Below, in pieces: positions 1-31,109 of a DNA stretch of 56,381 bases. Numbering within the stretch: the first letter of the stretch is position 1; every line of letters starts with the position of its first letter. The stretch is taken from positions 1-56,381 of the forward strand of contig CAYORS010000003.1 in assembly GCA_964406475.1 (NCBI GenBank), given 5' to 3'. Source of the DNA: an uncultured Candidatus Saccharibacteria bacterium. GTDB lineage: Bacteria; Patescibacteriota; Minisyncoccia; Phycocordibacterales; CAIRYW01. The translations under genes and the position numbers were made by a program. The notes below the pieces were generated by a model. That model worked only from the letters and a program-made list of their open reading frames with translations, was not told the DNA's origin and ran no database searches.

Positions 1-41
1 AGAAATTATTAACCAATATAAATCTTTATAAAATTTCATTT

Positions 42-392
42 ATGAACGAATTAGATATACCAATCTTTAAAAAGTCTTACGATTTGTACAAGGATTTTTA
101 CACGCTCCGATTATCAGTACCGAAACAGGATAGATATACTCTCTGGCAAAAATGCGAGAGCTTATTAATCGAAGTCTTGGAAGGAATTCTCTTTGCAAGC
201 CAACAGTCAAAGCTAGAAAAATTACCGACTTTAGAAAAGACTAGCGTTAAGTTGAATTTTCTACGAGTTTGTATTCGACTAATGAAAGATGTCAAAGCAA
301 TTGATGCAAAGAAATATGTCATCATCGAAGCAAATCTTGATGAGATAGGAAGAATGCTTGGAGGGTGGATAAAGTCCACTAAAGAGCGTTAA
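42..392 (+). CDS. avd: Avd-like four-helix-bundle protein (DGR accessory variability determinant / 23S rRNA intervening-sequence protein family)
   Basis: 116 aa. Helical sequence with SYDLYKDFY...VPKQDRYTLWQK in the N-terminal half and LDEIGRMLGGWIKS at the C-terminus, as in the Avd/four-helix-bundle family. It ends ~40 nt from a DGR template repeat. Confidence 0.75.
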   Translation: MNELDIPIFKKSYDLYKDFYTLRLSVPKQDRYTLWQKCESLLIEVLEGILFASQQSKLEKLPTLEKTSVKLNFLRVCIRLMKDVKAIDAKKYVIIEANLDEIGRMLGGWIKSTKER

Positions 393-395
393 TAG

Positions 396-418
396 AAAAC
401 CCACATGATGTGGGTTTT
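396..418 (+). terminator. Intrinsic terminator-like hairpin after avd
   Basis: aaaacccacat / atgtgggtttt stem around a 1-nt centre, 4 nt after the avd stop. The T-run forms the 3' arm and tail. Confidence 0.55.
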
Positions 419-430
419 CTCAAGATAGAG

Positions 431-554
431 TTATGACTGCCTGGCACCCGACAGACCGATGTTGTCATTGCGGTTGTCGTCGTTCCAGTTGTTGACGTTG
501 AGACCCTTGGAATCGAAGTTGCCGACGTTGACACGGTTACCGTCCGAGTCGAGA
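431..554 (-). repeat. DGR template repeat (TR); sense strand is minus
   Basis: 124 nt, collinear with 904-1027 at a constant offset of 473. Read on the minus strand it is rich in AAC codons (LDSDGNRVNVGNFDSKGLNVNNWNDDNRNDNIG...). Differences from the VR are concentrated at TR adenines. Confidence 0.85.
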
Positions 555-832
555 TATTGCTCGTTCCCATCTATGTCACCGAGACTCTAGGTTTACTAGC
601 CTTTACAGCTCTATATCCTCCCATCTCTGAATTTAATTCAGGAGCAGTTTTGAAACACCTCCACGAGAAACGAGCAAGAAGTTCTCTCTATCCTTAATCG
701 CACTCTACCGTGATCCGTAAACCACTAGTACTCTGGCGATACCTCAGGTGAGATATCTCGCGAACTTGAATCGTGACCCAAGTTACATTAGCAAGATATA
801 AATATATTAGCGTTAATAGTATAAAAATGAAA

Positions 833-865
833 GAGCCTCCGCAAAAAAAATTTTCGCGGAGGCTC
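833..865 (-). terminator. GC-rich hairpin downstream of the DGR target gene and VR
   Basis: gagcctccgc / gcggaggctc 10-bp stem with a 13-nt A/T loop. On the minus strand it lies 38 nt after the target stop and is followed by a T-rich tail. Confidence 0.6.
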
Positions 866-903
866 AAGTATTCAAGAGAGACAAGCTCTCAAGGGTTCAA
901 GGT

Positions 904-1027
904 TCACTGCTTCCTGCTGGCCGAGACCCCAAGGTGGTCGCGGCGGACGTCGCCCCAGTAGTCGCTGACGCGGAGACCCCCGGAATCGAAGCGGCCGACG
1001 AGGACACGGCCACCGTCCGAGTCGAGA
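904..1027 (-). repeat. DGR variable region (VR), including the IMH-like 3' end
   Basis: It matches the TR 431-554. In the 94-nt mutable part (934-1027 vs 461-554) I hand-count about 24 mismatches, about 20 of them at TR adenines on the coding strand. The 3'-most ~30 nt (904-933) diverge at other bases, as IMH versus IMH* would. Confidence 0.85.
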
Positions 1028-1707
1028 CTCGAAGTCCGAACGTAAACGCTTTCGAAGAGTCGGATACCACGGACCTCGAAGTAGGTCGTGATGAACCAGC
1101 TCATTTCGGCAGCGTTCGGAACGTGCTCGAGTGCCGTGAGAAGCTTGCTCTGCTCGTCCCAGTTTTTGCTGGTCGAGTTTGTGACTGGCGTCTTCTTGAT
1201 GGCGAGCCATCCGAACGACGTTTTGTCTTCGCGAGCAAACTTCTGATCCGCATACCAACCACCCGTTTCCGAGTAGAAGTGTGTGGATTTGATTTCACGA
1301 ACATCGAGCAGTGACATCGCTGTCGGCGGTGCAGGCATGACGGCATAACCGTTTTCTTTGCACCACTTGAGCATGTCTTCCGACGGCAGACTTTCGGCGA
1401 GTGCCGTGATCTGTTCATCGGTATAGACGATGCTCGGGCGAGCCTTGCTGACTTCCTCGGGCGTAATGAAATCCGTCCCGAGGATTGACTGGGCCAGACC
1501 GTAGTCGGGCGCTTTGGCAGAGAAGCGACGGATGCCTTCTGCGAGATACTCGGCGAAACCAGGATTCTCGTTAAGGCGCTGTGCACTTTCGTCGTTGAGC
1601 CCCGCCTTGTTGTATTGGGCGCGGAACGTTTCGGTGGCTCTCTGTCCTTTCGGACTGTCTGCGGTCACCAGTGCAGACGTGTTCAATTGCTTTTTCATCG
1701 ACATCAT
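904..1707 (-). CDS. DGR target protein carrying a C-terminal variable region
   Basis: 267-aa ORF, much more GC-rich than its surroundings. The last ~40 codons are the VR. An AGGAG Shine-Dalgarno sequence abuts the first ATG, so the 4th codon ATG at 1698 (MKKQLN...) is the more likely start. Confidence 0.85.
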   Translation of the reverse strand: MMSMKKQLNTSALVTADSPKGQRATETFRAQYNKAGLNDESAQRLNENPGFAEYLAEGIRRFSAKAPDYGLAQSILGTDFITPEEVSKARPSIVYTDEQITALAESLPSEDMLKWCKENGYAVMPAPPTAMSLLDVREIKSTHFYSETGGWYADQKFAREDKTSFGWLAIKKTPVTNSTSKNWDEQSKLLTALEHVPNAAEMSWFITTYFEVRGIRLFESVYVRTSSLDSDGGRVLVGRFDSGGLRVSDYWGDVRRDHLGVSASRKQ

Positions 1708-1756
1708 CTCCTGTGTTTTGGTGTACCGAATCGTCGGTTGGCGACTTGCCTCAGAT

Positions 1757-1805
1757 TGAGACTAGCTTTTTAAACCCTTAATTAAGGCTCAAAAAGCTAG
1801 TCTCA
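1757..1805 (-). terminator. Perfect 15-bp inverted repeat between terL and the DGR target gene
   Basis: tgagactagcttttt ... aaaaagctagtctca. The loop contains the palindrome ccttaattaagg. On the minus strand it follows the terL stop at 1883 and precedes the target start. Confidence 0.5.
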
Positions 1806-1882
1806 ACAGTGAATTACTTGTGAAAGAACTACGTATAGTATAACAAATATATACATATATGTCAATAGGTATTGTAATTTTG

Positions 1883-3994
1883 CTATACCCCTATCTCAGG
1901 GTACATCAGTTCTTCCTCATAATCTTCAATTGGATAGTTATTGCATCTTTTCTCCCACACAAACGTCATTCCCAACGCATCACAAATAGATAGATCAATT
2001 CCATCTTCTGTCAGTTTCTCTCTATCAATAATTTGCATTAATCCATCACGATCTTTCCATACAACGTACAGAAGATCGTCAAACCTCAGTCGGTTAAGAA
2101 GCTTTCCTCCATTCTCTAACCACTTCTTTAACTTTCCAAATCCTGAAGCGTAGATATCTGCATACTTTCCGTCGTTGTACATATATCTGTAGCTCACATC
2201 TAGTCCATATCTCTGATGATTCTCATACTTGTCCAGTATGAATTTTCCTTCAGCGTGTTTTTGCACGAGCCTACACAACTCAATTCCACTTCCGCTGTTA
2301 TCTATAAATATATTTTGGTCTGAAAGTGGTACATCATATTTGAGTGCAAGCTCGACTACTTTTCTCGCTACCGTATCCGCATCACTCGTTGGTTCAGAGT
2401 AAAGTATTTCAGCCGCTTCTTTGGTGCGAAGAATGATGGTTGAGTGAGTTCTTCTTGCATCTGCCAATATCACACCAAACATTCCATCTCCGTACATGGG
2501 GATTCTTTCACTGTAACTTTGGTTTAGGAGTTTTTCATCAAACAAGGTGAAGTATCCTTTGTTCATTCTAGAATCTTGCTCAATAACACTTAAGACCAAA
2601 ATACCTAGAGCATCACATAAGTCATCGTGTGTTTCATTTCCAAATCCTATAAGTTGAGTAATCAGTTTTTCTGCACCATGTCTTGGAAAGAGAACTGCTC
2701 CAGATTGTATATGTGCTGAAACAAGAGATAATCTTGCTCTTTTGTCTGAACCACCAGTCTTCCATTCTTTGGCAGGATATCCGTCAGAACGTAGTTGATC
2801 GACGATTGCCTGTTGGTATGCGACGGACTCAACCCACAGGTGAACGGGCAGACCGTTGCCTGACAATCTAGAAAGCGACTTCACTTTGGATATAGTCTCG
2901 GTAAAATCCATCTTTTCATTTATTGGGTTTGGCAGTATATATATTTTTAATCCTTTTTTTCTTCCACATATTTTTCCAGATACTATAGCAGTTGAATCAT
3001 TGTCACTCTTTTGACCGATTGCGGGGTCAACCCCAATTCCTGTGTATCTCACCGTGTCATTTGGTGGAAGTTCATCGTAGTGCTGTATCCACTCGGGTCT
3101 GATCAACTGATTATCTTCAGAAACAATATTGAGCATATATTCACGCTCCCAAGCTTGTATCGTGGGTATAGATTTACGGAGAGTGTCTATATCTATCTGT
3201 GTCTGAAATTTCTCAGGCCAAATTGAAGCACCATTCGCATCCAAAAAAGGATATCGTTTCGTTACACCGTCCATTCGACCTTCAATGATAGCTTGCTTCA
3301 ATTTTGAGATAAGCGAGTCGTGATGAAGTGCAGTACCAATAACTACAAGTCTCGTATGTTTGTCTCCAAGAGGCATAATGTCACCTGTGAGCCACTTGTA
3401 CATTTTGTCGCGACTTTCTTGAGTCTTCACAATATCCAAATCTTCCAAGTCGTCACAGATGATGAGATCTGGTCTATGTGCTCCGTGTTTGATACCACGA
3501 ATTGAACTTTCAATAGAGGCTACGGTGATTCTCGCACCGTATTTCGGAAGCACGATACTTGTTGCTCTCCACTCGTCATTAGGTTCTTCAAATGGCCCAA
3601 GATCAGATCGAAGAAGTGTATTTGATTCCAGTTCAATTTTTATGTTCGCCAGATATTGTCTCGCTTGAGATTCAGTCTTTGCAATCATGAGGACAAACTT
3701 CTTCTGTTGCACTCCAAGTATCGACCATATCGCATACGAAGTACCCATGATTGTGGTTTTGCCTGATCCTCGAAAGGCTTCAATGACCACAGTCTTCTGG
3801 CTTGTATCTTCAGTGACTTCAAATAACTCTTTTTGAAATCGTGCAGTTTTATATTTCACGTAGTGAGCAAAATATACATGGAAGAACCAGTGGTGACAGG
3901 CTTTGGTGAGTTCACGTCGAATACGCTGATCTTTGACGATCAGATTAAGCTTTTCTTGTTCAATTTCTACATCGTGATTATGAGGATTGTTCAT
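1883..3994 (-). CDS. Phage terminase large subunit
   Basis: 703 aa. Walker A-like FRGSGKTT, Walker B-like LIICDDLED, an RNase-H-like nuclease segment GIGVDPAIG...HDDLCDALG, then a second segment ending in ICDALG. Confidence 0.85.
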   Translation of the reverse strand: MNNPHNHDVEIEQEKLNLIVKDQRIRRELTKACHHWFFHVYFAHYVKYKTARFQKELFEVTEDTSQKTVVIEAFRGSGKTTIMGTSYAIWSILGVQQKKFVLMIAKTESQARQYLANIKIELESNTLLRSDLGPFEEPNDEWRATSIVLPKYGARITVASIESSIRGIKHGAHRPDLIICDDLEDLDIVKTQESRDKMYKWLTGDIMPLGDKHTRLVVIGTALHHDSLISKLKQAIIEGRMDGVTKRYPFLDANGASIWPEKFQTQIDIDTLRKSIPTIQAWEREYMLNIVSEDNQLIRPEWIQHYDELPPNDTVRYTGIGVDPAIGQKSDNDSTAIVSGKICGRKKGLKIYILPNPINEKMDFTETISKVKSLSRLSGNGLPVHLWVESVAYQQAIVDQLRSDGYPAKEWKTGGSDKRARLSLVSAHIQSGAVLFPRHGAEKLITQLIGFGNETHDDLCDALGILVLSVIEQDSRMNKGYFTLFDEKLLNQSYSERIPMYGDGMFGVILADARRTHSTIILRTKEAAEILYSEPTSDADTVARKVVELALKYDVPLSDQNIFIDNSGSGIELCRLVQKHAEGKFILDKYENHQRYGLDVSYRYMYNDGKYADIYASGFGKLKKWLENGGKLLNRLRFDDLLYVVWKDRDGLMQIIDREKLTEDGIDLSICDALGMTFVWEKRCNNYPIEDYEEELMYPEIGV

Positions 3995-4400
3995 ATGATT
4001 TTTCTGTTGCGTTTTCCTTTATACCCAACGCTTCACGTATGAGAGCTTCTTGTTCAGGTGTGAGTGGATCTTCTTTTTCAATTTTTGCTTTCACTTCAAG
4101 TCTATTTCCATATTCTGGATGATGCTGACGAAGCCAAAGCTGTATAGCTTGAAAGTTTTTCTCCTTTATCAGAGTAATGAGTTGAGACTCGCTTAAGTCA
4201 CTGATTATATCTTTGCCATCTTTCATTGAATCATCTGAGTCTCTGCGGAACTGCTCATCGTCTTTCCTCCATTGATAGTAGGTAGTGCGAGATATTCCAC
4301 ACCTTTCACATGCAAGTTGAACAATGGGTGTTTTCTTTAACTGCTCAATAAGGAGTTTCTTATCAGCGTCCTGTCTTTTTTTAATAGTCTCATTTCTCAT
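3978..4400 (-). CDS. HTH DNA-binding protein, probable terminase small subunit
   Basis: 140 aa. N-terminal helix-turn-helix (CERCGISRTTYYQWRKDDEQF). It lies immediately upstream of terL and overlaps it by 17 nt, and overlaps the upstream methylase by 4 nt. Confidence 0.5.
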   Translation of the reverse strand: MRNETIKKRQDADKKLLIEQLKKTPIVQLACERCGISRTTYYQWRKDDEQFRRDSDDSMKDGKDIISDLSESQLITLIKEKNFQAIQLWLRQHHPEYGNRLEVKAKIEKEDPLTPEQEALIREALGIKENATEKSYEQSS

Positions 4401-5155
4401 ATCTGTATAGCCTTAATGCCTGTTAATTTTTCAAATCTGGAAATGGTTGTAGCAACATATTCAGGATCAAACTCAATACCGACACACTTTCTTTTTGTCT
4501 GTTCACATGCAAGAAGGGCTGTACCTGAACCCATGAATCCATCGAACACTACATCACCGACTCTTGTGCTGTTTAGAATGAGGTGACGAATCAGAGCAAC
4601 TGGTTTTGTAGTCGGGTGATACGGACTTTTGTTGGGTTTTGGATAGACAATCACACTCTTATCTTTTGACTTCAAAAATTCATGCGTGCCAAACCATCCG
4701 TATGCAATAAGTTCATGCATTGGGGCGTAATCTAATCGACCAATGACAGCATGAGTTTTTACCCAGACAATGAGCTGTGCGAATTTACATCTAGCCTTTA
4801 GCATTCCTTCTCGGAGAGCAAATATCATCTTGTCACTGTTAAAAATGTACAAGGCATTTTTCTTTTCAAGATGTGGAGTAATTGCCATGAGCCAGTCTTC
4901 TGTGAACTTCACATATTCCTCGTCACTTTGATGGTGATCATTTTCAATAACTTTGTCTTTCTTCAATTTCTGAAAGTTTCGTTTGGATTCGGTTGCTTCG
5001 ATACCGTAAGGAACATCCGTGATGATGGCCTTAATTTTTTGTTTACCGACAACCTTAGCGACAAATTCTTTTTCTCTACTGTCACCACACCCGAGAATAT
5101 GATCACCGAGCTTGAATATCATTCCGTGTTTAATTGATTTTTGTAACTTTTTCAT
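4397..5155 (-). CDS. DNA N6-adenine/N4-cytosine methyltransferase (beta-class motif order)
   Basis: 252 aa. Catalytic TDVPYG (DPPY-like) motif precedes the SAM-binding FDGFMGSGTALLACE. The start may instead be the internal MIFKLGDH at 5122, which would remove the 26-nt overlap with the upstream gene. Confidence 0.85.
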   Translation of the reverse strand: MKKLQKSIKHGMIFKLGDHILGCGDSREKEFVAKVVGKQKIKAIITDVPYGIEATESKRNFQKLKKDKVIENDHHQSDEEYVKFTEDWLMAITPHLEKKNALYIFNSDKMIFALREGMLKARCKFAQLIVWVKTHAVIGRLDYAPMHELIAYGWFGTHEFLKSKDKSVIVYPKPNKSPYHPTTKPVALIRHLILNSTRVGDVVFDGFMGSGTALLACEQTKRKCVGIEFDPEYVATTISRFEKLTGIKAIQI

Positions 5156-6410
5156 TTGGATTAAGTTTTTTAAATCTATTAATGATGAGCTGGCAGAATA
5201 CTGGTTCGTACTCAGCTATATATGCTTTACGCTTGAGACACTCGCATGCCACAAGCAAACTGCCTGACCCTCCACAGAGATCCAATATCTTGTCTCCTGG
5301 CTTACTGCATCTTCTAAGTGATTTTTCATAGAGGCTTGGAGGCTTCATTGTCGGATGCTCATAGAGATTGCTTGCCATTCTTTTTGCAAGCCAAATCTGG
5401 AACATATCCATAATGTCGTCTATCAACCTATTGCCTGTGCCAATCTCTTTATTCAGGATTTCATTGAGGTTCTTTACGCCTGATGACAAGAAGGGTTTTC
5501 CTTTAGTCGAATACATGCACAATTCGACCGCCCGATTGAACGCTATCTGTGGTGTTGGATTTTGATTGGATTTAACCCAGAAACAGAGTCGCTTGAAATC
5601 AATACCAACTTCCTTGAATATCTCTTGGAACATGCCGATGAATTTTTCATCGAGCCACGTGAAGATGTGACAGTCTGGATTCGTGGTCGACAGTGCATTG
5701 GTAAGAATATTCTTTACGAACTTTCTGTACTCAGTACTTGATTTATTGTCGTCGATTGTGCCTCCGTAGTTTTGTTTTCCACTTATACCGCCCGAGTAGT
5801 CGACCCCGATGTTATACGGAAAATCAATATTGATGACATCTATCTTTTCTTTGCCAACGAGCCTTTTTACGGTGTTCGGATCCGTGCTATCCGCGCAGAT
5901 GAGTTTATGGCTTCCAAGTGCGAATATATCGCCACGCTTGATGTTGGTTTCCTTAGCTTTCTTAATCTCAGCTTCTTGGTCGAAGTCATCATCTGAAACC
6001 TCAAGTGAGTCATCGAATATTTGTGCAAGGTCGCTATCGAATCCTGATGCAAGTAGTGTGTCGATATCAAAGTCGCTTGCAAGAACATTCCAGTCCCAAT
6101 CTCCGTGTATTCGATTACTAGATAGAAGATACTGTTTGAACTCAGAAGGCGTGAGCTTTCTGTTTGGCATTCTGACCTCTATCATTTCCTCACCACGATT
6201 CAAAAGCTGTAACGCCCTGATTCTCTGGTGACCTGCTACAATTTTTCCATCAAGATTGATTGCGGGAATTTCCGCCAGATTAAATTTTTTAAGACTCTCC
6301 TTGAGATCATCCATCTGCTTTTCACTAATAACTCTAGGGTTCTTCTCGTAGGGAAGAAGATCGTTTACTCGGCGTTTTATGGTACGCCATACCAATGGTG
6401 TTTTTGACAT
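5130..6410 (-). CDS. ParB-like nuclease domain fused to a DNA methyltransferase
   Basis: 426 aa. N-terminal ParB/Srx-like segment (IVAGHQRIRAL). C-terminal methylase with IDFPYN and ILDLCGGSGSLLVACE. Confidence 0.85.
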   Translation of the reverse strand: MSKTPLVWRTIKRRVNDLLPYEKNPRVISEKQMDDLKESLKKFNLAEIPAINLDGKIVAGHQRIRALQLLNRGEEMIEVRMPNRKLTPSEFKQYLLSSNRIHGDWDWNVLASDFDIDTLLASGFDSDLAQIFDDSLEVSDDDFDQEAEIKKAKETNIKRGDIFALGSHKLICADSTDPNTVKRLVGKEKIDVINIDFPYNIGVDYSGGISGKQNYGGTIDDNKSSTEYRKFVKNILTNALSTTNPDCHIFTWLDEKFIGMFQEIFKEVGIDFKRLCFWVKSNQNPTPQIAFNRAVELCMYSTKGKPFLSSGVKNLNEILNKEIGTGNRLIDDIMDMFQIWLAKRMASNLYEHPTMKPPSLYEKSLRRCSKPGDKILDLCGGSGSLLVACECLKRKAYIAEYEPVFCQLIINRFKKLNPNEKVTKIN

Positions 6411-6451
6411 GATTATTTTTAATAATTAATAATCCGTCATTCTCTAAAACA

Positions 6452-6481
6452 AAAACCAACATACGTGTGTATGCTGGTTTT
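6452..6481 (-). terminator. Hairpin plus T-tract just upstream of the ParB-methylase start
   Basis: aaaaccaacata / tatgctggtttt 12-bp stem with one mismatch. T-rich tails follow on both strands. On the minus strand it would end a transcript arriving from 7.4 kb. Confidence 0.45.
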
Positions 6482-7131
6482 TGTTTCTAGGTATTTTGTG
6501 CGCTTCAAAAATCTCACTAGAATAACAAAAAAGCATACCTCACATGAATGTGAATATGGTTTGTTACTTTAGTGAAATCTTCAAGCTTCTCCTATTAGAG
6601 TATTTAATCTCCCTTTATTCTTTACGTCAGAGGTAAAACAGCTGGGAAGGCTGCATCTGCTTCAGAGATCTTGAGCGAAGTGTCTTTCTATTTATTGAAA
6701 ATAGTGAGAATACGTATTCCTTGCTTCCACCCTCGAAGGCTACGTTGGGTGCTAGGTCTTGGATCGCCACCAAGACAGAATAGGAGAATATCGTATGTTC
6801 TCAAGTTTGTATTTGTTTTGAAAAGGACGGGCTTGATTACTCAAGCTGTTTATATTCTCTCATCTTGCTTCCCGTGATGTCAAACTAAGGTTGGTGGACA
6901 TCATCTGTGGCAGTATGTAAATCTTACGCTCTACCTTGAGTGTTCAGTCTATATTTGTCCTGAAATACCCTTATTTTTATTTATCTCTTGGTTTTTGACT
7001 GTAAATATTGCACCTACTCTAAAACCCATGTTTTGTGTCAGATTTGTTCGGTTTGTGAATAATTACACCCCGACCCACAAACCCTAAATTCGATTGGCTA
7101 AGTATGCTAAAATACCCTTACAAGGCCTCGA

Positions 7132-7292
7132 GGTGTGGGTACCATACCCGAGTACACCGTAGGAGCAAAAAACAAAGTTTTTTGAGAGAAAGTGTGGGAC
7201 ACTTTCGTGAGGGATTCGAAAGGATTTTCGGGACCCGGCCTAGTAAGGCTGGGTGAAAATCCAGGCGATAAGCTTAGAGTGCCCGAGAGGGC
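7132..7292. ncRNA. Candidate structured RNA core, unclassified
   Basis: Five consecutive near-perfect hairpins in 160 nt: 7132-7158 (nested), 7166-7184, 7188-7206, 7222-7262 (8-bp outer stem enclosing a 7-bp stem at 7234-7253), and 7281-7292 (GAGA tetraloop). The region has no credible ORF and is more GC-rich than its flanks. One G-U pair favours the plus strand only weakly. Confidence 0.3.
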
Positions 7293-7393
7293 TTCGAGAA
7301 ATTCTTGGAGCGACGGCGATAAAATGTTCTTGACCGAATATCCCTCCGTCTTCAATTTACAAAATAAGGTCGACTCGTCATTTATATAAAAAC

Positions 7394-7421
7394 CACCTCT
7401 AGCACGGAGTGCATAGAGGTG
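7394..7421 (-). terminator. Intrinsic terminator of the 7429-7959 gene
   Basis: cacctctagcac / gtgcatagaggtg stem with a 1-nt bulge. It begins 8 nt after the stop on the minus strand and is followed by GTTTTTAT. Confidence 0.65.
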
Positions 7422-7428
7422 ATGATGT

Positions 7429-7959
7429 TTAAGGTCGCCATTGCATACTTGGGTCATAAGCGAGGCGCATCCCCCACATGGTTGGACTGAATTGTCCATT
7501 GATATAGTAAAACGCACCCAAAGCTGTGGCAGCCACGCTGATAGCCAAAATTTCTTCAGAAAGATTTCTGAGAGAGCCTGTTACGGATTGATCCATGAGT
7601 CTTTTGAGAATTGTCCTGTTGGACGAATGCATTAAAAGTGGATTAATCCATGCCATACGCTCTGCAAGGATTTCTTCTTCTTTGAAGGGGAAATTTTGAA
7701 GGACTTCGTGCACATTCAGCATGGGGCCCTGAAGGGTAATCATGTTGCCAAGGCGGGTCATTTCCCAGTGCCTGCCGTTGATACGAAGCAAGCCGAGCTT
7801 TGCACATTCGAGCATAACAGTTAAGGTTTCTCGATTGGCAATATTTGCATGTAGATGTGAATTTGAAGAAAGAGCCCTCTGCAGGGCTCCGTAGTTTTCA
7901 TGGCGCCTAAGTAAAAATAGTGCCTGTTTGAAAAAAGGGTGCAGTATGTGTGAGTTCAT
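7429..7959 (-). CDS. Hypothetical protein
   Basis: 176-aa ORF with its own terminator. More GC-rich than neighbouring host-like genes. No motif recognised. Confidence 0.55.
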   Translation of the reverse strand: MNSHILHPFFKQALFLLRRHENYGALQRALSSNSHLHANIANRETLTVMLECAKLGLLRINGRHWEMTRLGNMITLQGPMLNVHEVLQNFPFKEEEILAERMAWINPLLMHSSNRTILKRLMDQSVTGSLRNLSEEILAISVAATALGAFYYINGQFSPTMWGMRLAYDPSMQWRP

Positions 7960-8085
7960 AAGAGAGCTATCTGGTGGAATAGTACTCCAAGATGCTTTAA
8001 AAATCTAGTCAGGCTTGCTTTTGGTAATAAGGGTCTTTTTCTGCTAAAATCTTTTTGTAACAAAAGATGAGTTCTTAATCGCCTT

Positions 8086-8117
8086 TATCTCCAACAAATC
8101 ATACTATCTCCACCAAA
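8086..8117. promoter_or_regulatory. Operator-like direct repeats in a divergent intergenic region
   Basis: tatctccaacaaa (8086-8098) and tatctccaccaaa (8105-8117) match at 12 of 13 positions with starts 19 nt apart. They lie between the divergent genes 7429-7959 (minus) and 8181-8558 (plus). Confidence 0.3.
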
Positions 8118-8180
8118 AGCACTACATTTACAAACTTCTAAAAATGAGTAGTCTTACTTCAGACTAACCAGCTCTTCATT

Positions 8181-8558
8181 ATGAAAATCTTTACTTCTGA
8201 ATACCAGTATTACGTCTGTTATTCGATTCTCTGTGTCGTGTATCCTGTCTCTTCGTCTCTTTGGCTCCTGTTCTGGCGCAATTGGAGAAGAACAGCAACA
8301 TGTGGGCAAGTCCAGAAAAGATATGCCTATCTACCAAAAACAAAACCTAGCACAATGATCGTGTTGGCAGTCGGACTTTTGGTAGTGATGCTCACAGTCC
8401 ATATGCTTCTCTTTTTATGGAATGTGAGTGAAATAAAAAAGGGTTTATGGATCGCATGGGTCGGATCAGGTTTCAATTGTTTAGGGATTCTGCTCATTCT
8501 CAAGCCCTTTGGAGTAATCGCATCAAGATGTCTGAAACCAAGAGGAAATGCTTCATAG
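8181..8558 (+). CDS. Hypothetical membrane protein
   Basis: 125-aa ORF with about three hydrophobic segments. Start uncertain. Confidence 0.45.
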   Translation: MKIFTSEYQYYVCYSILCVVYPVSSSLWLLFWRNWRRTATCGQVQKRYAYLPKTKPSTMIVLAVGLLVVMLTVHMLLFLWNVSEIKKGLWIAWVGSGFNCLGILLILKPFGVIASRCLKPRGNAS

Positions 8559-8630
8559 ACAAAAGTTTTAACCCGCTTGCTGGTCTCTAGATCTGCGAGT
8601 GGTTTTTAAAATTTCATCCACTGAAAACTT

Positions 8631-9032
8631 CTATTTCCTCTCCGCCACCTCCGCTCGAGTGATAACACCTTTGGTGGCATTATAATAAAAATTCACAGGA
8701 ATCTTTTGCTCTAGCGACATCTTGAGTACAGCAAGTATCGCTGTATCTTCCTTGTCTACACAATATTTGCCTGCCATAGGGGGGAAGCTTGCGCAGTACA
8801 ATTCTCTGTATTCTTGAGAGTCACGAGTCACAGGTAAGGTGAGAAGTTCAAGGTGGGATACAGTTCCTGTCTGCATAAGAGAGCTGTCCTGTGAGTCTGC
8901 TTGTAGTGGTGGGGTGTTGTGAGATGAGTTAGTCATAGATCCTTTTATAAATAGATATGTTAATGATAACATAAAAACGACAAAACATAAGATGATGATA
9001 TGTTGCTTTTTCATATTATAATTATATGTCAT
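8631..9032 (-). CDS. Hypothetical signal-anchored or secreted protein
   Basis: 133-aa ORF. The likely start is MKKQHIIILCFVVFMLSL at 9014, a hydrophobic N-terminal anchor. Confidence 0.55.
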   Translation of the reverse strand: MTYNYNMKKQHIIILCFVVFMLSLTYLFIKGSMTNSSHNTPPLQADSQDSSLMQTGTVSHLELLTLPVTRDSQEYRELYCASFPPMAGKYCVDKEDTAILAVLKMSLEQKIPVNFYYNATKGVITRAEVAERK

Positions 9033-9104
9033 CTAGCCTTTTATGTATAACATTGTCTCTAACTTTTTTCTTCGCAAGGGCTGTCTCTGTGGATATAATA
9101 TGTG

Positions 9105-9113
9105 TGATATAAT
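9105..9113 (+). promoter_or_regulatory. Extended -10 element (TGaTATAAT) upstream of the ankyrin gene
   Basis: Exact TGnTATAAT match, 15 nt before the ATG at 9129. Confidence 0.45.
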
Positions 9114-9128
9114 TACACTCATAAATCA

Positions 9129-9887
9129 ATGATACAGAAAATATTTTTAGTAGTAATAGTTATTTTTTTTGTCGCATCTTATTTTTTAAGAGGGATATTT
9201 ATGGATTTATTTAATAAACAAACAAATCCTATGCTTGCTCATCAAGCGGAGGAGTATTATTCTGATTCAGTTTCAATAAAAATTGCTTCTGCAATACAGA
9301 AAGATGACATAGATCTATTGGAGGATTTAGTGAAATCTCCTGATTTTAAACCAGAAGATCATGGCAAGAGAGATGTTTCATTAATTTTGTGGGCAGCCTC
9401 TTTAGATAATATAAACGCTATATCTGTATTAATAAAAGCGGGTGTACCTGTCGATGATGTTATGGTATTTAATAGAATTAATATGAACATGGTATCAATT
9501 GCTGTTAGTTCTAGAAATCCTGAGTTTTTAAAAATTTTATTAGATGAGGGAGCAAATCCAAATGGTGTTGGAGATACAGAAGCGCCTCTAATAACCGCTA
9601 TTTTTGCAAAGAGATGGGATAGATTTGATCTTTTGATTAATAAAGGGGCGGATATTGAAAAACAAGATGATGCAGGAGTAACACCACTTATTCAACTTGC
9701 GCTAGTAAGTGAATATGAGCAAGTGTTAAAACTTTTAAAATTAGGTGCTAATCCAGAACATAAAACAATCTTGGGTATGTCGCTTCGTACAGTGATAGAC
9801 AAATTTCCACTAGATCTATCATCAGAAGCTGGTAAAGCTCAGCAAAGTGTTGTTGATTTTTTGAAAAAAAATAATTCGCAAGGGTAG
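9129..9887 (+). CDS. Ankyrin-repeat protein with an N-terminal membrane anchor
   Basis: 252 aa. N-terminal hydrophobic helix, then repeats such as LILWAASLDNINAISVLIKAGVPVDD, EFLKILLDEGANPNG and GVTPLIQLALVSEYEQVLKLLKLGANP. Confidence 0.85.
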   Translation: MIQKIFLVVIVIFFVASYFLRGIFMDLFNKQTNPMLAHQAEEYYSDSVSIKIASAIQKDDIDLLEDLVKSPDFKPEDHGKRDVSLILWAASLDNINAISVLIKAGVPVDDVMVFNRINMNMVSIAVSSRNPEFLKILLDEGANPNGVGDTEAPLITAIFAKRWDRFDLLINKGADIEKQDDAGVTPLIQLALVSEYEQVLKLLKLGANPEHKTILGMSLRTVIDKFPLDLSSEAGKAQQSVVDFLKKNNSQG

Positions 9888-9944
9888 CTTTTGTAGATTT
9901 ACAGTAGGTTTGCTCATTTAAAATATTAATGACATAATTCTTAT

Positions 9945-10616
9945 ATGAAAGATTTCTCCGGTAATCTTCTTTTGAAGAATAAATACACACCACTCACCGA
10001 CAGTCTAGTATTTATTGATTGTTCAATGGAAAAGATTGTGGAAAAATTTGTAGAGTGGCAAAAGAAGATTTTTTTATCGACAACTGTGCCCAAATCAATA
10101 GTGTGTAGTACTATAAATAGTTCTTCATTGGAGCAGTCACTCCAGAGTATGTCGCTTGTAAAAGAAGGACAGCCCAATAAGTTTTTGTTTATGGAGACAA
10201 AAAGTAATTGGACAGCATATTTTGAAAACGGGGTAGATGGAACAGACGGAATTTCATACCCTTCTTTTTTATCTAAACTACTGAATTGCAAAGTTATTCA
10301 CATTATGGCAGTTCCTCATAGTTCAAGTATTGAAGGTGCTTTATCTTTTGATCTATTCAGTAATAGAAATAAAGGATCTGATTTCTTAAATTTAGAGAGA
10401 AGTATTTCATTGATTCATGATTCAAAATGGCATTTTTATGCCAGTGGAGAACCTTTGAGTTTTGAGAAAGTAGAAGTGTATGATTCTGATTTTGTTACCG
10501 ATAAATTTACATTTGATATTCTATCTGAATATGCATTCAAGATGGGTATAAGTCCATTCGATATTGATTTTTACATTCCAGAAAAATCAATTTTAGTTGA
10601 AAGAGTGAGTATTTAA
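9945..10616 (+). CDS. Hypothetical cytoplasmic protein
   Basis: 223-aa ORF with no overlapping alternative. A CATAAT -10-like element lies 6 nt upstream of the ATG. Confidence 0.6.
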   Translation: MKDFSGNLLLKNKYTPLTDSLVFIDCSMEKIVEKFVEWQKKIFLSTTVPKSIVCSTINSSSLEQSLQSMSLVKEGQPNKFLFMETKSNWTAYFENGVDGTDGISYPSFLSKLLNCKVIHIMAVPHSSSIEGALSFDLFSNRNKGSDFLNLERSISLIHDSKWHFYASGEPLSFEKVEVYDSDFVTDKFTFDILSEYAFKMGISPFDIDFYIPEKSILVERVSI

Positions 10617-29887: not shown

Positions 29888-31109
29888 AAAAATACTTGTT
29901 GTTTGTCCAAGTTTACCTTTTCCCTTAACAGGTGCTGAACAAAGTGATAGAGCGTATGGTATTTTGCAGTTAAAAAGATTAGGGTTTGATGTTTCAATCC
30001 TTGCAAAAGCATACCCTCGACATCAAGAAACTTTGAAGGAAGCAGAGCAGTTTTTTGGAGTTCCTATTGTTACTGTATCGTATAAATATCAAAAGTGTAA
30101 CAATTTTTTTGATTTGTTTAAAAAATACACACGCTTTTTCTTGAACATTCTTTATATTGATGGTGCGGCGTTTGAGTTTAGTGACAATGAGATGAAGCAA
30201 AAATTATCTACTCTTCTCAAAGATTGGAAACCTGACCTTGTGTGGTTCGAGTATACATACCTGTGGCCTCTGTATGATCTTGTAAAGGCGCACAACGTTC
30301 CTATCATAACTCGTTCTGCAAATTTTGAACCTCAGCATTTTTTAGAAGAGGGGGGGCATGGTTTTTTGAGTCAAATTATGTATTTTATAAAGATGAAAGG
30401 TGAAATAAAAACAATCACTAATTCTTCACATATCTTTGCAATCACACCAAAAGAGAAAAAAATTTATGACAAATTAACAAAAACACCAGTGTCGGTGCTA
30501 CCTTTGCGAGGGCTTTACCAGTGTTTTTTGCAAGTACCTCATTCATATAATTATAAGAAAAAGATCAATGTGTTTTTTATGGGTTCAACATACAATGTGT
30601 CTCATAATTACAAAGATCTTTCTTTTATTTTAAAAGAGATAATTCCGCTGTTGCGACAAAGACTTGATGGACGCTTCGTCTTTCATATTTTAGGCAAAAA
30701 AATTCCAAAAGAGTGCGAAGTGTATTTAGGTGATGATGTCTTATATGATGGATATGTTGATGATTTGTACACAACTCTCCAAGATATGGATGTTGCATGT
30801 ATTCCGTCGCTTGGTGGTTGTGGTATGCAACAAAAGATATTTGAGTCATTGTGTTTAGGGATTCCAACTGTAACTTCAGAAAGAGGGGTTGCCCACTATC
30901 CCTTTGTTCATGGGACACATCTTCTTACTGCGCAGTCTGCAGAAGAGTTTGTGTGGTCAATAGAAGTTTTGTGTGATGAAAAAGAAAGATCTCGTATAGG
31001 CACAAGCGCTCGTTTTTTGAGTCGAGAGCTCTTTGAAAGAAAAGTGATTGATGGTATTGTATATAACGTTATTTCTGATGTTATGACTTCTTATGAACAA
31101 AAACACTAA
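29880..31109 (+). CDS. GT-B fold glycosyltransferase
   Basis: 409 aa. GGCGMQQKIFESLCLGIPTVTSERG motif. Overlaps the upstream gene by 8 nt. Confidence 0.7.
   Translation: MNKKILVVCPSLPFPLTGAEQSDRAYGILQLKRLGFDVSILAKAYPRHQETLKEAEQFFGVPIVTVSYKYQKCNNFFDLFKKYTRFFLNILYIDGAAFEFSDNEMKQKLSTLLKDWKPDLVWFEYTYLWPLYDLVKAHNVPIITRSANFEPQHFLEEGGHGFLSQIMYFIKMKGEIKTITNSSHIFAITPKEKKIYDKLTKTPVSVLPLRGLYQCFLQVPHSYNYKKKINVFFMGSTYNVSHNYKDLSFILKEIIPLLRQRLDGRFVFHILGKKIPKECEVYLGDDVLYDGYVDDLYTTLQDMDVACIPSLGGCGMQQKIFESLCLGIPTVTSERGVAHYPFVHGTHLLTAQSAEEFVWSIEVLCDEKERSRIGTSARFLSRELFERKVIDGIVYNVISDVMTSYEQKH

Follow-up and report, generated by a model that had tools for sequence, protein, structure and literature searches.

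A diversity-generating retroelement of a Patescibacteria lineage with a conserved structured RNA 5' of its template repeat

The left end of a 56,381-nt stretch of DNA from an uncultured Candidatus Saccharibacteria bacterium (contig CAYORS010000003.1; the whole stretch is referred to below as the window) contains two copies of a repeat that differ mostly at adenines, next to a gene of the Avd family. The locus raises the question of how a diversity-generating retroelement (DGR) in which the avd gene is inverted organises cis-primed reverse transcription. In our judgment it is highly probable (about 85%) that positions 1-1865 of the window represent most of a complete DGR from the CPR/Patescibacteria lineage, in which the core order is template repeat (TR), avd and reverse transcriptase (RT), or TR-(avd)-RT. 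The repeats and genes of the locus are the following.

431..554, minus strand: template repeat (TR), with homology to the variable repeat over 554..440; encodes LDSDGNRVNVGNFDSKGLNVNNWNDDNRNDNIGLSGARQS followed by a stop codon, and its adenines are concentrated in AAC codons.
439..431, minus strand: TR-specific conserved sequence CAGTCATAA.
913..1027, minus strand: variable repeat (VR), within the portion of the target ORF that encodes the C-terminus; the substituted positions are 934-1012.
933-913, minus strand: IMH-like, GC-rich 3' segment of the VR, unsubstituted.
904..1707, minus strand: target gene, encoding 267 aa; the N-terminal domain is helical and the C-terminal domain bears the VR.
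42..392, plus strand: avd accessory gene, 116 aa, antisense to the TR and the RT.
1..39, minus strand: first 13 codons of the DGR reverse transcriptase, MKFYKDLYWLIIS; the gene continues past the left edge of the window for another 336 codons.

The initial annotation had reported a gapless match between 431-554 and 904-1027 at an offset of 473, with a hand count of about 24 mismatches over 94 nt, about 20 of them at adenines of the TR. The match was borne out, with an ungapped alignment of 437-554 to 910-1027 at a spacing of 473, and the repeat extends to 440/913, which corresponds to 115 nt (TR 554..440, VR 1027..913, minus strand). In the core of the repeat (461-554 versus 934-1027, minus strand), the computed values were the same as those counted by hand, with 24 mismatches in 94 nt, of which 20 were at TR adenines. 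Tabulated by TR base, the substitutions were strongly biased, affecting 20 of the 28 adenines as compared to only 4 of the 66 other bases (Fisher p = 1.6e-10), and the peptide readings of both repeats and the five AA-to-NN codon changes described earlier were reproduced. Only two sites in the 56 kb window, the TR and the VR themselves, matched the TR pattern with its adenines masked, with 0 expected by chance. Across the full 115-nt repeat there were 33 mismatches, 21 of them at adenines and 12 at other bases, with 8 of these 12 located in the GC-rich 3' end. Compared with this same VR, the TR of contig L001, a parent or sister contig, has 19 differences, and all 19 are at adenines. Among 15 related TR/VR pairs, 255 of 444 adenines differed versus 13 of 1281 other bases; we give totals only for these loci, since loci ending in AAGCAGTGA and those ending in AAGTGA are 3 nt out of register, which blurred a per-column profile. 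The differences are thus confined to adenines in the lineage, but only in part in the window's own pair.

The TR retains an open reading frame and a stop codon that resembles the end of a gene, as would be expected if the repeat had arisen simply by duplication and divergence of a gene's 3' end, without any retroelement. This explanation is already refuted by the tabulated substitution spectrum, and its probability is negligible given the adenine specificity in the window, in L001 and across the 15 loci, the Avd and the DGR-type RT encoded next to the repeat, and a TR that is constant from locus to locus while the VRs differ.

A six-frame search of the window for Y/F-x-DD motifs gave a single, unrelated site at 30753, and the RT is represented in the window by just its first 13 codons at 39..1. 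In L001, an intact RT of 349 aa is encoded at 8949-9998(-), corresponding to position 39 and below in the window. This protein contains the motifs IGNLTSQ and YTDD, matches RVT_1 with 98.4 bits, and displays the features of the DGR clade, namely [I/L]GxxxSQ in place of the QGxxxSP of group II RTs and a catalytic YxDD. Its best match in the PDB was 8ub7_A (E = 1.5e-43, as compared to 1e-19 for group II RTs), a 328-aa reverse transcriptase with the motifs IGSLTSQ and YMDD, which we take to be the Bordetella bRT. A contig without any RT, together with a VR free of micro-diversity, had been named beforehand as an argument against a DGR; what was found is the intact, DGR-type RT on L001.

The product of 42-392 scored above the cutoffs of both NCBIfam NF033474 DivGenRetAVD (82.8 bits, cutoff 80) and Pfam PF22296 bAvd (62.7 bits, cutoff 40), while a sequence search of Avd against the PDB gave no match. 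The proposal of an Avd-family gene beside the TR thus holds, with the correction that this gene is located on the strand opposite to the TR. It is positioned head-to-head with the RT gene, with only 2 nt between the start codons. On the minus strand, the order is target (1707..904), terminator, leader (797..555), TR (554..431), hairpin (420..394), antisense avd and RT. The same TR/avd/RT arrangement was observed in 20 or more related loci, and the cassette occurs in two target orientations in approximately 20 related loci with adenine-only mismatches. All defining parts of a DGR are present, and the identification of the locus as such is supported.

The core TR-(avd)-RT, in which the reverse strand carries avd, corresponds to architecture B3 of the CPR DGRs, in 90% of which avd is inverted between the TR and the RT (Wu et al., 2018, PMC5758913), and to DGR clade 2 (Roux et al., 2021, PMC8144416). 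The order of TR, reverse-strand avd and RT is the same here, the target has no transmembrane or known domains, as reported for the clade, and the gene content shows no difference. Since the B3 architecture is typical of CPR DGRs, the locus belongs to a known kind, in agreement with the earlier remark, now matched in both architecture and lineage, that DGRs are known in the CPR and that the class is not new. As a DGR it is an ordinary one, and adds one more example to a class known to be enriched in CPR bacteria. The 41 loci from GTDB genomes with a homologous target carry nearly exclusively names of the Patescibacteria group, in addition to a few named "uncultured bacterium" or "bacterium". 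The window has a low GC content and contains genes of cellular type, among them Obg and MYG1. A scan of viral contigs with the 48-nt pattern of the leader helix P1 gave 0 matches, and thus no copy carried by a phage. The element is chromosomal and its host is cellular.

Evidence for activity comes from sister clusters, in which identical scaffolds were associated with four different VRs in one case (P0003, P0279, P0280, P0281) and with two different VRs in another (P0285, P0288). Diversification thus appears to be ongoing in related clusters, where the same scaffolds carry different VRs. No VR variants were found for the window's own lineage, in which the window, L001 and P0284 share one and the same VR. 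The locus had been described as a clean and recently active instance, a description that fits the L001 pair, with its 19 adenine-only differences, better than the window, the TR of which is a different variant.

The window and L001 are identical over 10.4 kb except for 42 SNPs, all of which are located in 407-664 and 1105-1357. In 500-699 and 1050-1399 the window is instead identical to contig L003, while 400-499 matches neither L001 nor L003. The window TR is not the exact parent of its VR, which was written from a TR of the L001 type, and the window combines parts of two co-occurring cassette variants in a mosaic that stems from either recombination or assembly. The window-type TR is marked by the sequences …TGGAACGACGAC…ATCGGTCTGTCGGGTGCC, and the VR is of the YW type. 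A gapped alignment, in which the discrepancy between TGG-AAC and TAC-TGG was modelled as an indel, was rejected because the L001 TR explains the VR without gaps.

We put even odds on the window being an assembly chimera of L001-type and L003-type cassettes, such that the true molecule has a cognate TR/VR pair. The 42 SNPs are patchy, and it is in exactly those stretches that the window equals L003; the resulting B-A-B patch pattern is typical of graph-path switching. Furthermore, the sample accession number of L003 is close to that of L001, so that both are probably from the same study, and contig L002 breaks within the TR. Against a chimera, 400-499 matches neither of these two contigs, and a near-identical TR variant is located beside the same avd in another sample (L002). 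The same VR was also found in a third scaffold combination (P0284), a finding that agrees equally well with real recombination. It is somewhat less probable, yet a serious possibility, that the haplotype is genuine, the product of homologous recombination or gene conversion among DGR cassettes, with a VR that has not yet been rewritten by the present TR. Mosaic combinations are present in several independent contigs (the window, L001, L003 and P0284). In addition, the dS value of the target is 0.35, as compared to saturation for avd and the RT, and its GC3 value is foreign (0.73 versus 0.37), both of which fit with frequent exchange of target/TR modules. The evidence is nevertheless the same as for the chimera, and reads are needed to separate the two. 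With its 3' homing homology degraded, rewriting of the VR by the TR may be impaired under recombination; a real window haplotype may home poorly, given that 8 of the non-adenine differences affect the GC-rich 3' end, the part expected to direct homing. The TR/VR mismatch in the window, which the sister contig resolves, shows the mosaic nature of DGR cassettes in metagenome assemblies, and non-adenine mismatches should not be taken as lost specificity.

The VR encodes the C-terminal approximately 35 aa of the 267-aa target, and variation among target homologues was seen only at positions encoded by AAC codons in the TR. The target has 418 close homologues and 2234 matches among representatives of clusters at 50% identity. 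No Pfam domain was identified in 111 diverse members of the family, and a search of the PDB with the target profile gave no match. An AF2 model built from an alignment of 111 representatives at the 50% identity level had a pLDDT of 95.3. Another model, from the shallow alignment A1 of 40 close homologues, had a pLDDT of 55.7 and was discarded. Foldseek searches against the PDB and BFVD gave no match at E <= 0.001. The weak matches were mostly to FGE/EgtB/SenA proteins and snake-venom C-type lectins, with the best local match to 8oks_B (probability 0.98, target-normalised TM-score 0.61, above an E-value of 0.001). The predicted structure thereby hints at a C-type-lectin (CLec) fold. With the 2234 cluster matches, no Pfam domain and a high-confidence model, the family could be defined as a DGR target family. 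Its gene is flanked by the following elements.

1865..1837, minus strand: promoter-like site TTGACA-17-TATACT, upstream of the target gene.
1806..1756, minus strand: 21-bp hairpin in the 5' UTR of the target gene.
876..890, minus strand: small hairpin GAGAG-CTTGT-CTCTC, 14 nt past the target stop codon, within a conserved CTTGA-repeat region.
833..865, minus strand: intrinsic terminator of the target gene, GAGCCTCCGC...GCGGAGGCTC plus a T run, kept with compensatory changes in related loci.

The 5' UTR hairpin is conserved in loci of architecture B, with a compensatory change of GACTAGC/GCTAGTC versus GACGAGC/GCTCGTC. Loci of architectures A and B and loci that lack an RT all retain the small hairpin at 890-876 downstream of the VR. 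Its stem covaries (GAGGG/CCCTC, GAGGA/TCCTC), with insertions in the loop in three loci, and together with the terminator hairpin at 865-833 it is kept 3' of the VR in all locus types. By analogy to the inverted repeat that follows the IMH in Bordetella, it is a candidate target-recognition element.

The interval of 349 nt between the VR and the TR was not recognised as structured in the earlier account. Most of it, approximately 797-555, is a conserved structured RNA located directly 5' of the TR rather than a spacer. The elements of this RNA and its surroundings are listed here.

804..809, minus strand: -10-like box TAATAT, 6 nt upstream of the first base of P1.
555..797, minus strand: structured 5' leader of the DGR RNA, identified by covariation and folding.
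797-791 with 761-755 and 786-776 with 771-762, minus strand: helix P1.
739-736 with 701-698, 730-727 with 709-706 and 724-720 with 715-711, minus strand: helix P2.
693-686, minus strand: 5' strand of helix LR, GGATAGAG, predicted to pair with 430-423 just 3' of the TR.
685-678, minus strand: invariant linker AGAACTTC.
677-666 with 568-557, minus strand: helix P3, with leader strand TTGCTCGTTTCT and its partner just 5' of the TR.
662-641, 627-581 and 610-598, minus strand: inner hairpins of the leader.
423..430, minus strand: 3' strand of helix LR, CTCTATCT, directly after the pseudo-stop of the TR and paired with 693-686 by RNAalifold.
394..420, minus strand: hairpin T, AGAAAACCC...GGGTTTTCT, directly 3' of the TR.

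The leader block is conserved in both cassette architectures. In an alignment of 58 leader sequences, 97.5% of the cells were paired, as compared to 36-51% in slid controls, and double, compensatory changes were observed in 47 of 75 pairs; none of 500 shuffles reached the observed values. Covariation was seen in 49 of the 78 pairs in the RNAalifold structure of the leader, and the minimum free energy fold of the window sequence alone recovered the same leader helices as well as hairpin T. Helix P3 consists of 12 bp, of which 6 show double changes, and compensatory changes were found in 8 of the 9 pairs of hairpin T (helix 12 in alignment A4). Compensated variants of LR were identified in L034 and L093 (GGATGGAG:CTCCATCC), in L021 (GGTAGGGA:TCCTTACC) and also in L058, whereas L074, L092, L098, L099 and L035, the RNAs that diverge most, show weak or unclear pairing. 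Duplex energies of -6.3 kcal/mol for LR are artefacts, caused by the wrong flank being taken in approximately 10 sequences when the duplexes were extracted automatically. At the position of the 804..809 box related loci contain TATAAT, which suggests that the box may be the promoter for the DGR RNA. Hairpin T may be a bidirectional terminator and may also serve as a stem-loop to which Avd binds; an Avd-binding stem-loop just downstream of the TR has been reported for many DGRs, and the position of hairpin T agrees with this. No Rfam family matched anywhere in the window at gathering thresholds, and at E <= 1 the region 350-1900 gave just two chance matches to microRNAs, both on the 5' UTR hairpin. 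Searches for tRNA and tmRNA were negative. We found no mention of a leader of approximately 240 nt located 5' of the TR in the DGR literature covered, although Paul et al. (2017) may describe it.

From this covariation, we propose a topology in which the TR would be held as a loop between the two helices LR and P3. A single contiguous strand of the leader, GGATAGAG-AGAACTTC-TTGCTCGTTTCT, would provide one strand of each helix, with LR pairing to the 8 nt just 3' of the TR (in the RNA model, GGATAGAG/CTCTATCC) and P3 to the 12 nt just 5' of it. By the established mechanism of DGRs, upon transcription of the leader-TR RNA a complex of RT and Avd would reverse-transcribe the TR with misincorporation opposite adenines, and the cDNA would replace the VR, thereby recoding about 13 codons of the AAC/AAG type in a ligand-binding surface of the target. 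The start site for cis-primed cDNA synthesis may be the 3' end of GGATAGAG or the position beside it, since the scaffold strand is located upstream of the template and not downstream as in Bordetella.

The closest solved RT is that of the Bordetella BPP-1 DGR, with the gene order mtd-avd-TR-brt (Handa et al., PMC6182149; bioRxiv 10.1101/2023.10.23.563531), with which the RT shares IGxLTSQ and YxDD. The two systems also have in common an Avd, adenine-specific mutagenesis with AAC codons, a VR at the C-terminus of the target, and a GC-rich 3' end of the homology followed by a hairpin downstream of the VR. In Bordetella, and as predicted from covariation in the present RNA, two helices that share one contiguous RNA strand bracket the TR, a topology that in Bordetella is that of the primer duplex and the "cPRT Stop" duplex, and in both a stem-loop is located just 3' of the TR. 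They differ in that avd is here inverted and placed between the TR and the RT, the host is cellular rather than a phage, and the target is not Mtd-like. The structured RNA of Bordetella (Sp, 140 nt) is located 3' of the TR, whereas that described here is approximately 240 nt and located 5' of it. Likewise, the upstream partner in the helix at the 5' edge of the TR is supplied by the leader here, but by the avd coding sequence in Bordetella. Judged by this analogy, the leader would be a Bordetella-like priming scaffold that has been moved upstream of the template, and it probably organises the copying reaction.

Retrons provide a second point of comparison. In the retron ncRNA (msr-msd), a structured, primer-bearing RNA is located upstream of the template and forms a long-range duplex with the 3' flank of the template, and the retron RT starts at the 3' end of the template, beside this duplex. 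The resemblance suggested here is one of RNA order by analogy. The RT belongs to a different clade, with a match to the retron RT of 5e-20 that is below the cutoff; moreover, a TR/VR pair and an Avd are present, and a branched msDNA product is not in evidence.

The leader could instead be a 5' UTR that serves a different purpose, for example to stabilise the transcript, to regulate the level of TR RNA or to act as a platform for protein binding, with the true priming spacer being the RNA antisense to avd, 3' of the TR. The known systems would suggest this: among 278 surveyed DGRs with an Avd, 207 have the predicted elements no further than 40 nt upstream or 100 nt downstream of the TR, as does Bordetella. 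In addition, LR pairs weakly in the family members that have diverged furthest. In the place of a Bordetella-type Sp we found 3' of the TR one hairpin only, followed by antisense avd, at which the RNA analysis stopped because coding constraint is a confounder there. We nevertheless consider this alternative unlikely, as hairpin T with its U-rich tail directly 3' of the TR resembles a terminator, P3 joins the sequence immediately 5' of the TR to the leader and not to sequence downstream, and the 5' strands of LR and P3 are adjacent, in the order of the primer and Stop strands of Bordetella.

Returning to a priming role for the leader, it is possible, if a little short of an even chance, that DGRs of the TR-(avd)-RT type, or at any rate those of this large Patescibacteria family, have a scaffold that is circularly permuted relative to that of Bordetella. 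Both strands, GGATAGAG on the primer side and TTGCTCGTTTCT on the stop side, would then come from the leader, in a retron-like order with the primer RNA before the template. The leader RNA would thereby offer a mutationally testable answer to the question of how avd-inverted DGRs organise cis-primed reverse transcription, and the covarying helices name the exact nucleotides for mutation.

The left end of the window belongs to a genuine, complete diversity-generating retroelement (DGR) of the known CPR B3/clade 2 kind. The initial annotation, made from sequence alone, had proposed a DGR, and this is supported with three corrections: the reverse transcriptase (RT) gene lies off the window, the accessory gene avd is antisense, and the template repeat (TR) and variable repeat (VR) are non-cognate, with structured sequence in the gap between them. 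The features are as follows.

39..1, minus strand: first 13 codons of the RT gene (349 aa, RVT_1), which continues in L001, an 81-kb sister contig; start codon 2 nt from the avd start
42-392, plus strand: avd ORF; PF22296 62.7 bits (cutoff 40), NF033474 82.8 bits (cutoff 80)
554..431, minus strand: TR
677-666 with 568-557, minus strand: leader helix P3, ending 2-3 nt ahead of the TR
693-686 (GGATAGAG) with 430-423 (CTCTATCT), minus strand: leader helix LR, starting directly after the TR pseudo-stop
865-833: terminator hairpin downstream of the VR, in all locus types including RT-less ones
890-876: small covarying hairpin downstream of the VR, in all locus types including RT-less ones
1027..913, minus strand: VR, at the C-terminal end of the target ORF (1707..904)

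The ungapped repeat at offset 473 was reproduced by a repeat finder (437-554/910-1027), as were both peptide readings. On the minus (coding) strand, the 94-nt core (461-554 versus 934-1027) contains 24 mismatches, in line with the earlier hand count of about 24, and tabulation by TR base showed that they are concentrated at adenines, with 20 of 28 TR adenines changed versus 4 of 66 other bases (Fisher p = 1.6e-10). The homology is longer than this mutable part: it reaches 440/913 and so spans 115 nt, and across this length the window pair has 33 mismatches, 12 of them at non-adenines. The adenine-masked TR pattern matches two sites only in 56 kb, the TR and the VR, where chance predicts none. 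Among 15 TR/VR pairs from related loci, differences were found at 255 of 444 TR adenines and at 13 of 1281 other bases; two edge columns outside the repeat account for nine of these 13.

Both curated Avd models were passed in the HMM check of 42-392. The gene does adjoin the TR, as had been noted, but runs antisense to both the TR and the RT. No RT gene was found within the window beyond the first 13 codons; L001, which was found by an Avd protein look-up in public assemblies and includes the left end of the window, carries one adjoining avd. This RT has the DGR-type motif IGNLTSQ and YTDD, and its closest solved relative is 8ub7_A (E = 1.5e-43), a 328-aa RT with IGSLTSQ and YMDD that we take to be the Bordetella bRT, as compared to 1e-19 for group II intron RTs. 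The minus-strand order is thus target/VR, TR, antisense avd and RT. [quoted passage not shown] 2018, PMC5758913), and DGR clade 2 is restricted to Patescibacteria and has targets without recognisable domains (Roux et al. 2021, PMC8144416).

Close homologues of the 267-aa target number 418; none carries a name other than "hypothetical", and where the source is named it is nearly always Patescibacteria. In an alignment of 40 homologues, the scaffold is strongly conserved and the hypervariable columns, which coincide with the positions of AAC/AAG codons in the TR, are confined to the last ~35 residues. With a profile, 2234 family members (387 at E <= 1e-30) were recovered from 1.84 billion cluster representatives, and none of 111 diverse members matched a Pfam family. 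The AF2 model built from a diverse alignment (pLDDT 95.3, pTM 0.86) gave no significant whole-chain match in Foldseek; the weak matches were mostly to FGE/EgtB/SenA proteins and C-type lectins (top local match 8oks_B, probability 0.98), which makes a CLec-like C-terminal domain plausible.

The TR/VR pair of the window was compared with that of L001. L001 is the same as the window over 10.4 kb, including an identical VR, except for 42 SNPs, all located in 407-664 (TR and flanks) or 1105-1357 (target scaffold). The L001 TR (...AAC TAC TGG GAC AAC AAC CGC AAC GAC AAC CTT GGG GTC TCG GCC AGC AGG) and the shared VR disagree at 19 positions, every one an adenine, and at 0 of 85 non-adenines (p = 2e-14), whereas the window TR (...TGG AAC GAC GAC AAC CGC AAT GAC AAC ATC GGT CTG TCG GGT GCC AGG) adds the 12 mismatches at non-adenines, of which 8 fall within the GC-rich 3' end; it is not the parent of its VR. 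Across both SNP patches (500-699, 1050-1399), the window equals L003, a cassette with a truncated RT in a different genomic context, whose sample accession number is near that of L001; the two are probably from the same study. Neither matches the window at 400-499. L002, from another sample, has a near-identical window-type TR adjoining the same avd, and P0284, a target homologue on a 4.4-kb ENA contig, has an L003-type scaffold throughout together with exactly the heavily substituted VR of the window, so that one VR occurs on three scaffold combinations. We conclude that the window is a mosaic of co-occurring cassette variants. Homologous recombination and a path switch during assembly have roughly equal weight as its origin.

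An exchange of target/TR modules between lineages fits the GC3 values in the window lineage (0.73 for the target versus 0.37 for avd and RT) and the dS values between L001 and the related locus L004 (0.35 for the target, saturated for avd and RT), and the module and RT/avd seem to have had separate histories. The target is a GC island in the window (904-1707 versus 1-392), L001, L004 and L006 (GC 0.57-0.63, GC3 0.73-0.86; adjacent avd/RT GC3 0.37-0.62). In L060 (980-1392), L081 (890-1312) and L095 (7-432), the TR position behind an intact leader has lost most adenines and is VR-like (e.g., GGC, CGC and TAC replacing AAC); these templates may have been overwritten or replaced via recombination with a VR.

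The expected VR hypervariability was observed in sister lineages but not for the window's own VR. In 90%-identity clusters formed by the closest relatives, P0003, P0279, P0280 and P0281 have identical scaffolds and four VRs, and P0285/P0289 and P0288/P0290 have identical scaffolds and two VRs. No variants of the window's own VR were found, the window, L001 (P0287) and P0284 sharing one.

We compared five loci reached via homologous proteins and 41 loci from GTDB genomes, the latter nearly all Patescibacteria-group by name (Taylorbacteria, Nomurabacteria, Kaiserbacteria, Adlerbacteria, Paceibacterota, Minisyncoccia, and several labelled Saccharibacteria). Two cassette forms were seen: form A, that of the window, with target(+)...TR(+), avd(-), RT(+), and form B, with RT(-), avd(+), TR(-) and then a divergently oriented target(+). 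The TR-(avd)-RT module is invariant and the target gene alone is flipped. Genomic neighbourhoods differ among the cassettes of the five loci, and no cassette copies were found in the viral contigs scanned. In about 20 loci, the target is present and RT, avd and TR are all absent within 3.5 kb. Such loci, about half of the genome loci (L009, L011, L019, L022, L023, L026-L030, L032, L033, L036 and others), keep the hypervariable VR columns and post-VR signals, and may be either orphans or distant targets that are served in trans.

The DGR looks like part of a mobile or prophage-derived island. Window 1883-6410 encodes a 703-aa terminase-large-subunit-like protein, an HTH protein and two N6/N4 DNA methylases, a pair that also adjoins the RT in L004 and L005 (7247-8792), while L001 1-9000 encodes two serine recombinases, a Dcm-type methylase, an NgoFVII-like restriction enzyme and a response regulator. 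The ~2.7 kb at 6411-9128 holds a single ORF >150 aa (7429-7959), which has no Pfam match, and no tRNA or Rfam match; its GC content (0.39-0.45) is slightly above that of the downstream genes.

Four CTTGA repeats follow the VR in all locus types, including RT-less ones. By analogy with Bordetella, where homing requires the IMH and an inverted repeat, these repeats and the 890-876 and 865-833 hairpins are candidate homing signals. A 21-bp hairpin (1756-1806, minus strand) lies in the target 5' UTR, between a strong promoter-like site (1865..1837) and the start codon; it is conserved in loci of architecture B, where a compensatory change is seen (GACTAGC/GCTAGTC versus GACGAGC/GCTCGTC), and its Rfam matches were chance microRNA matches only.

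The 349-nt stretch that separates VR from TR holds the terminator and a structured RNA. Alignment of the TR strand of 20 loci identified a conserved non-coding block directly 5' of the TR in both forms, starting with ATCTTGCT (window 797) just past a TATAAT-like box. RNAalifold predicted 96 pairs from 19 sequences, 38 with compensatory changes, and, after the 48-nt pattern of the first leader hairpin had yielded 60 further metagenome loci, 78 pairs from 58 distinct sequences, 49 of them covarying. For 75 chosen pairs in 12 helices, with partners slid by 1-3 columns and 500 shuffles as controls, 97.5% of cells were paired (slid, 36-51%), 47 pairs were changed on both sides (slid, 15-20) and the covariation score was 0.332 (slid, 0.11 or less); all shuffles fell short of the observed value for each measure. 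The window leader folded alone has the same helices (z = -2.59), and no Rfam family matched the leader, also with the threshold relaxed to E <= 1.

Individual lineages carry insertions (extra hairpins) at fixed points, at hairpin tips, in columns 54-85, 235-247, 256-287 and 385-408 of the leader alignment A4, and just inside the TR 5' end in L056 and L107; the leader insertions resemble the expansion segments typical of structured RNAs. L061, L077, L079 and L090 are nearly alike over the first ~120-190 nt and then continue, from differing points, into unrelated sequence (tRNA-like by eye in L061), and L101 retains the first ~65 nt only; these truncated leaders may be decayed cassettes or assembly joins. 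The 3.9-kb contig L080 has opposed leader copies, 1453-1500(-) and 2611-2658(+), within 1.2 kb, suggestive of two DGR RNAs arranged back to back.

The 5' strands of LR and P3 are neighbours in the leader, with an invariant AGAACTTC between them. LR has compensated variants in L034/L093 (GGATGGAG:CTCCATCC), L021 (GGTAGGGA:TCCTTACC) and L058, and its pairing is weak in the most divergent RNAs. In Bordetella, a single contiguous Sp strand takes part in two duplexes: the primer duplex, in which it pairs with the 3' end of the TR (Sp53-56:TR118-121; A56 primes), and, 2 nt on, the "cPRT Stop" duplex, in which its partner is the sequence immediately 5' of the TR (bioRxiv 10.1101/2023.10.23.563531); Avd binds a stem-loop immediately 3' of the TR. 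The window shares this two-helix topology around the TR and differs in where the contiguous strand lies: upstream of the template here, downstream in Bordetella. From this we propose, by analogy, a priming scaffold in which the DGR RNA would be circularly permuted relative to that of Bordetella, the priming site would be the 3' end of GGATAGAG or a position beside it, and hairpin T (420-394), 3' of the TR, would be the Avd-binding stem-loop and terminator.

The preprint survey was limited to the 40 nt before and the 100 nt after the TR (bioRxiv 10.1101/2023.10.23.563531), and RNA structure is not discussed by Wu et al. 2018 (PMC5758913). The leader RNA might be the sole part of the locus that is new, and it merits follow-up independently of this window.
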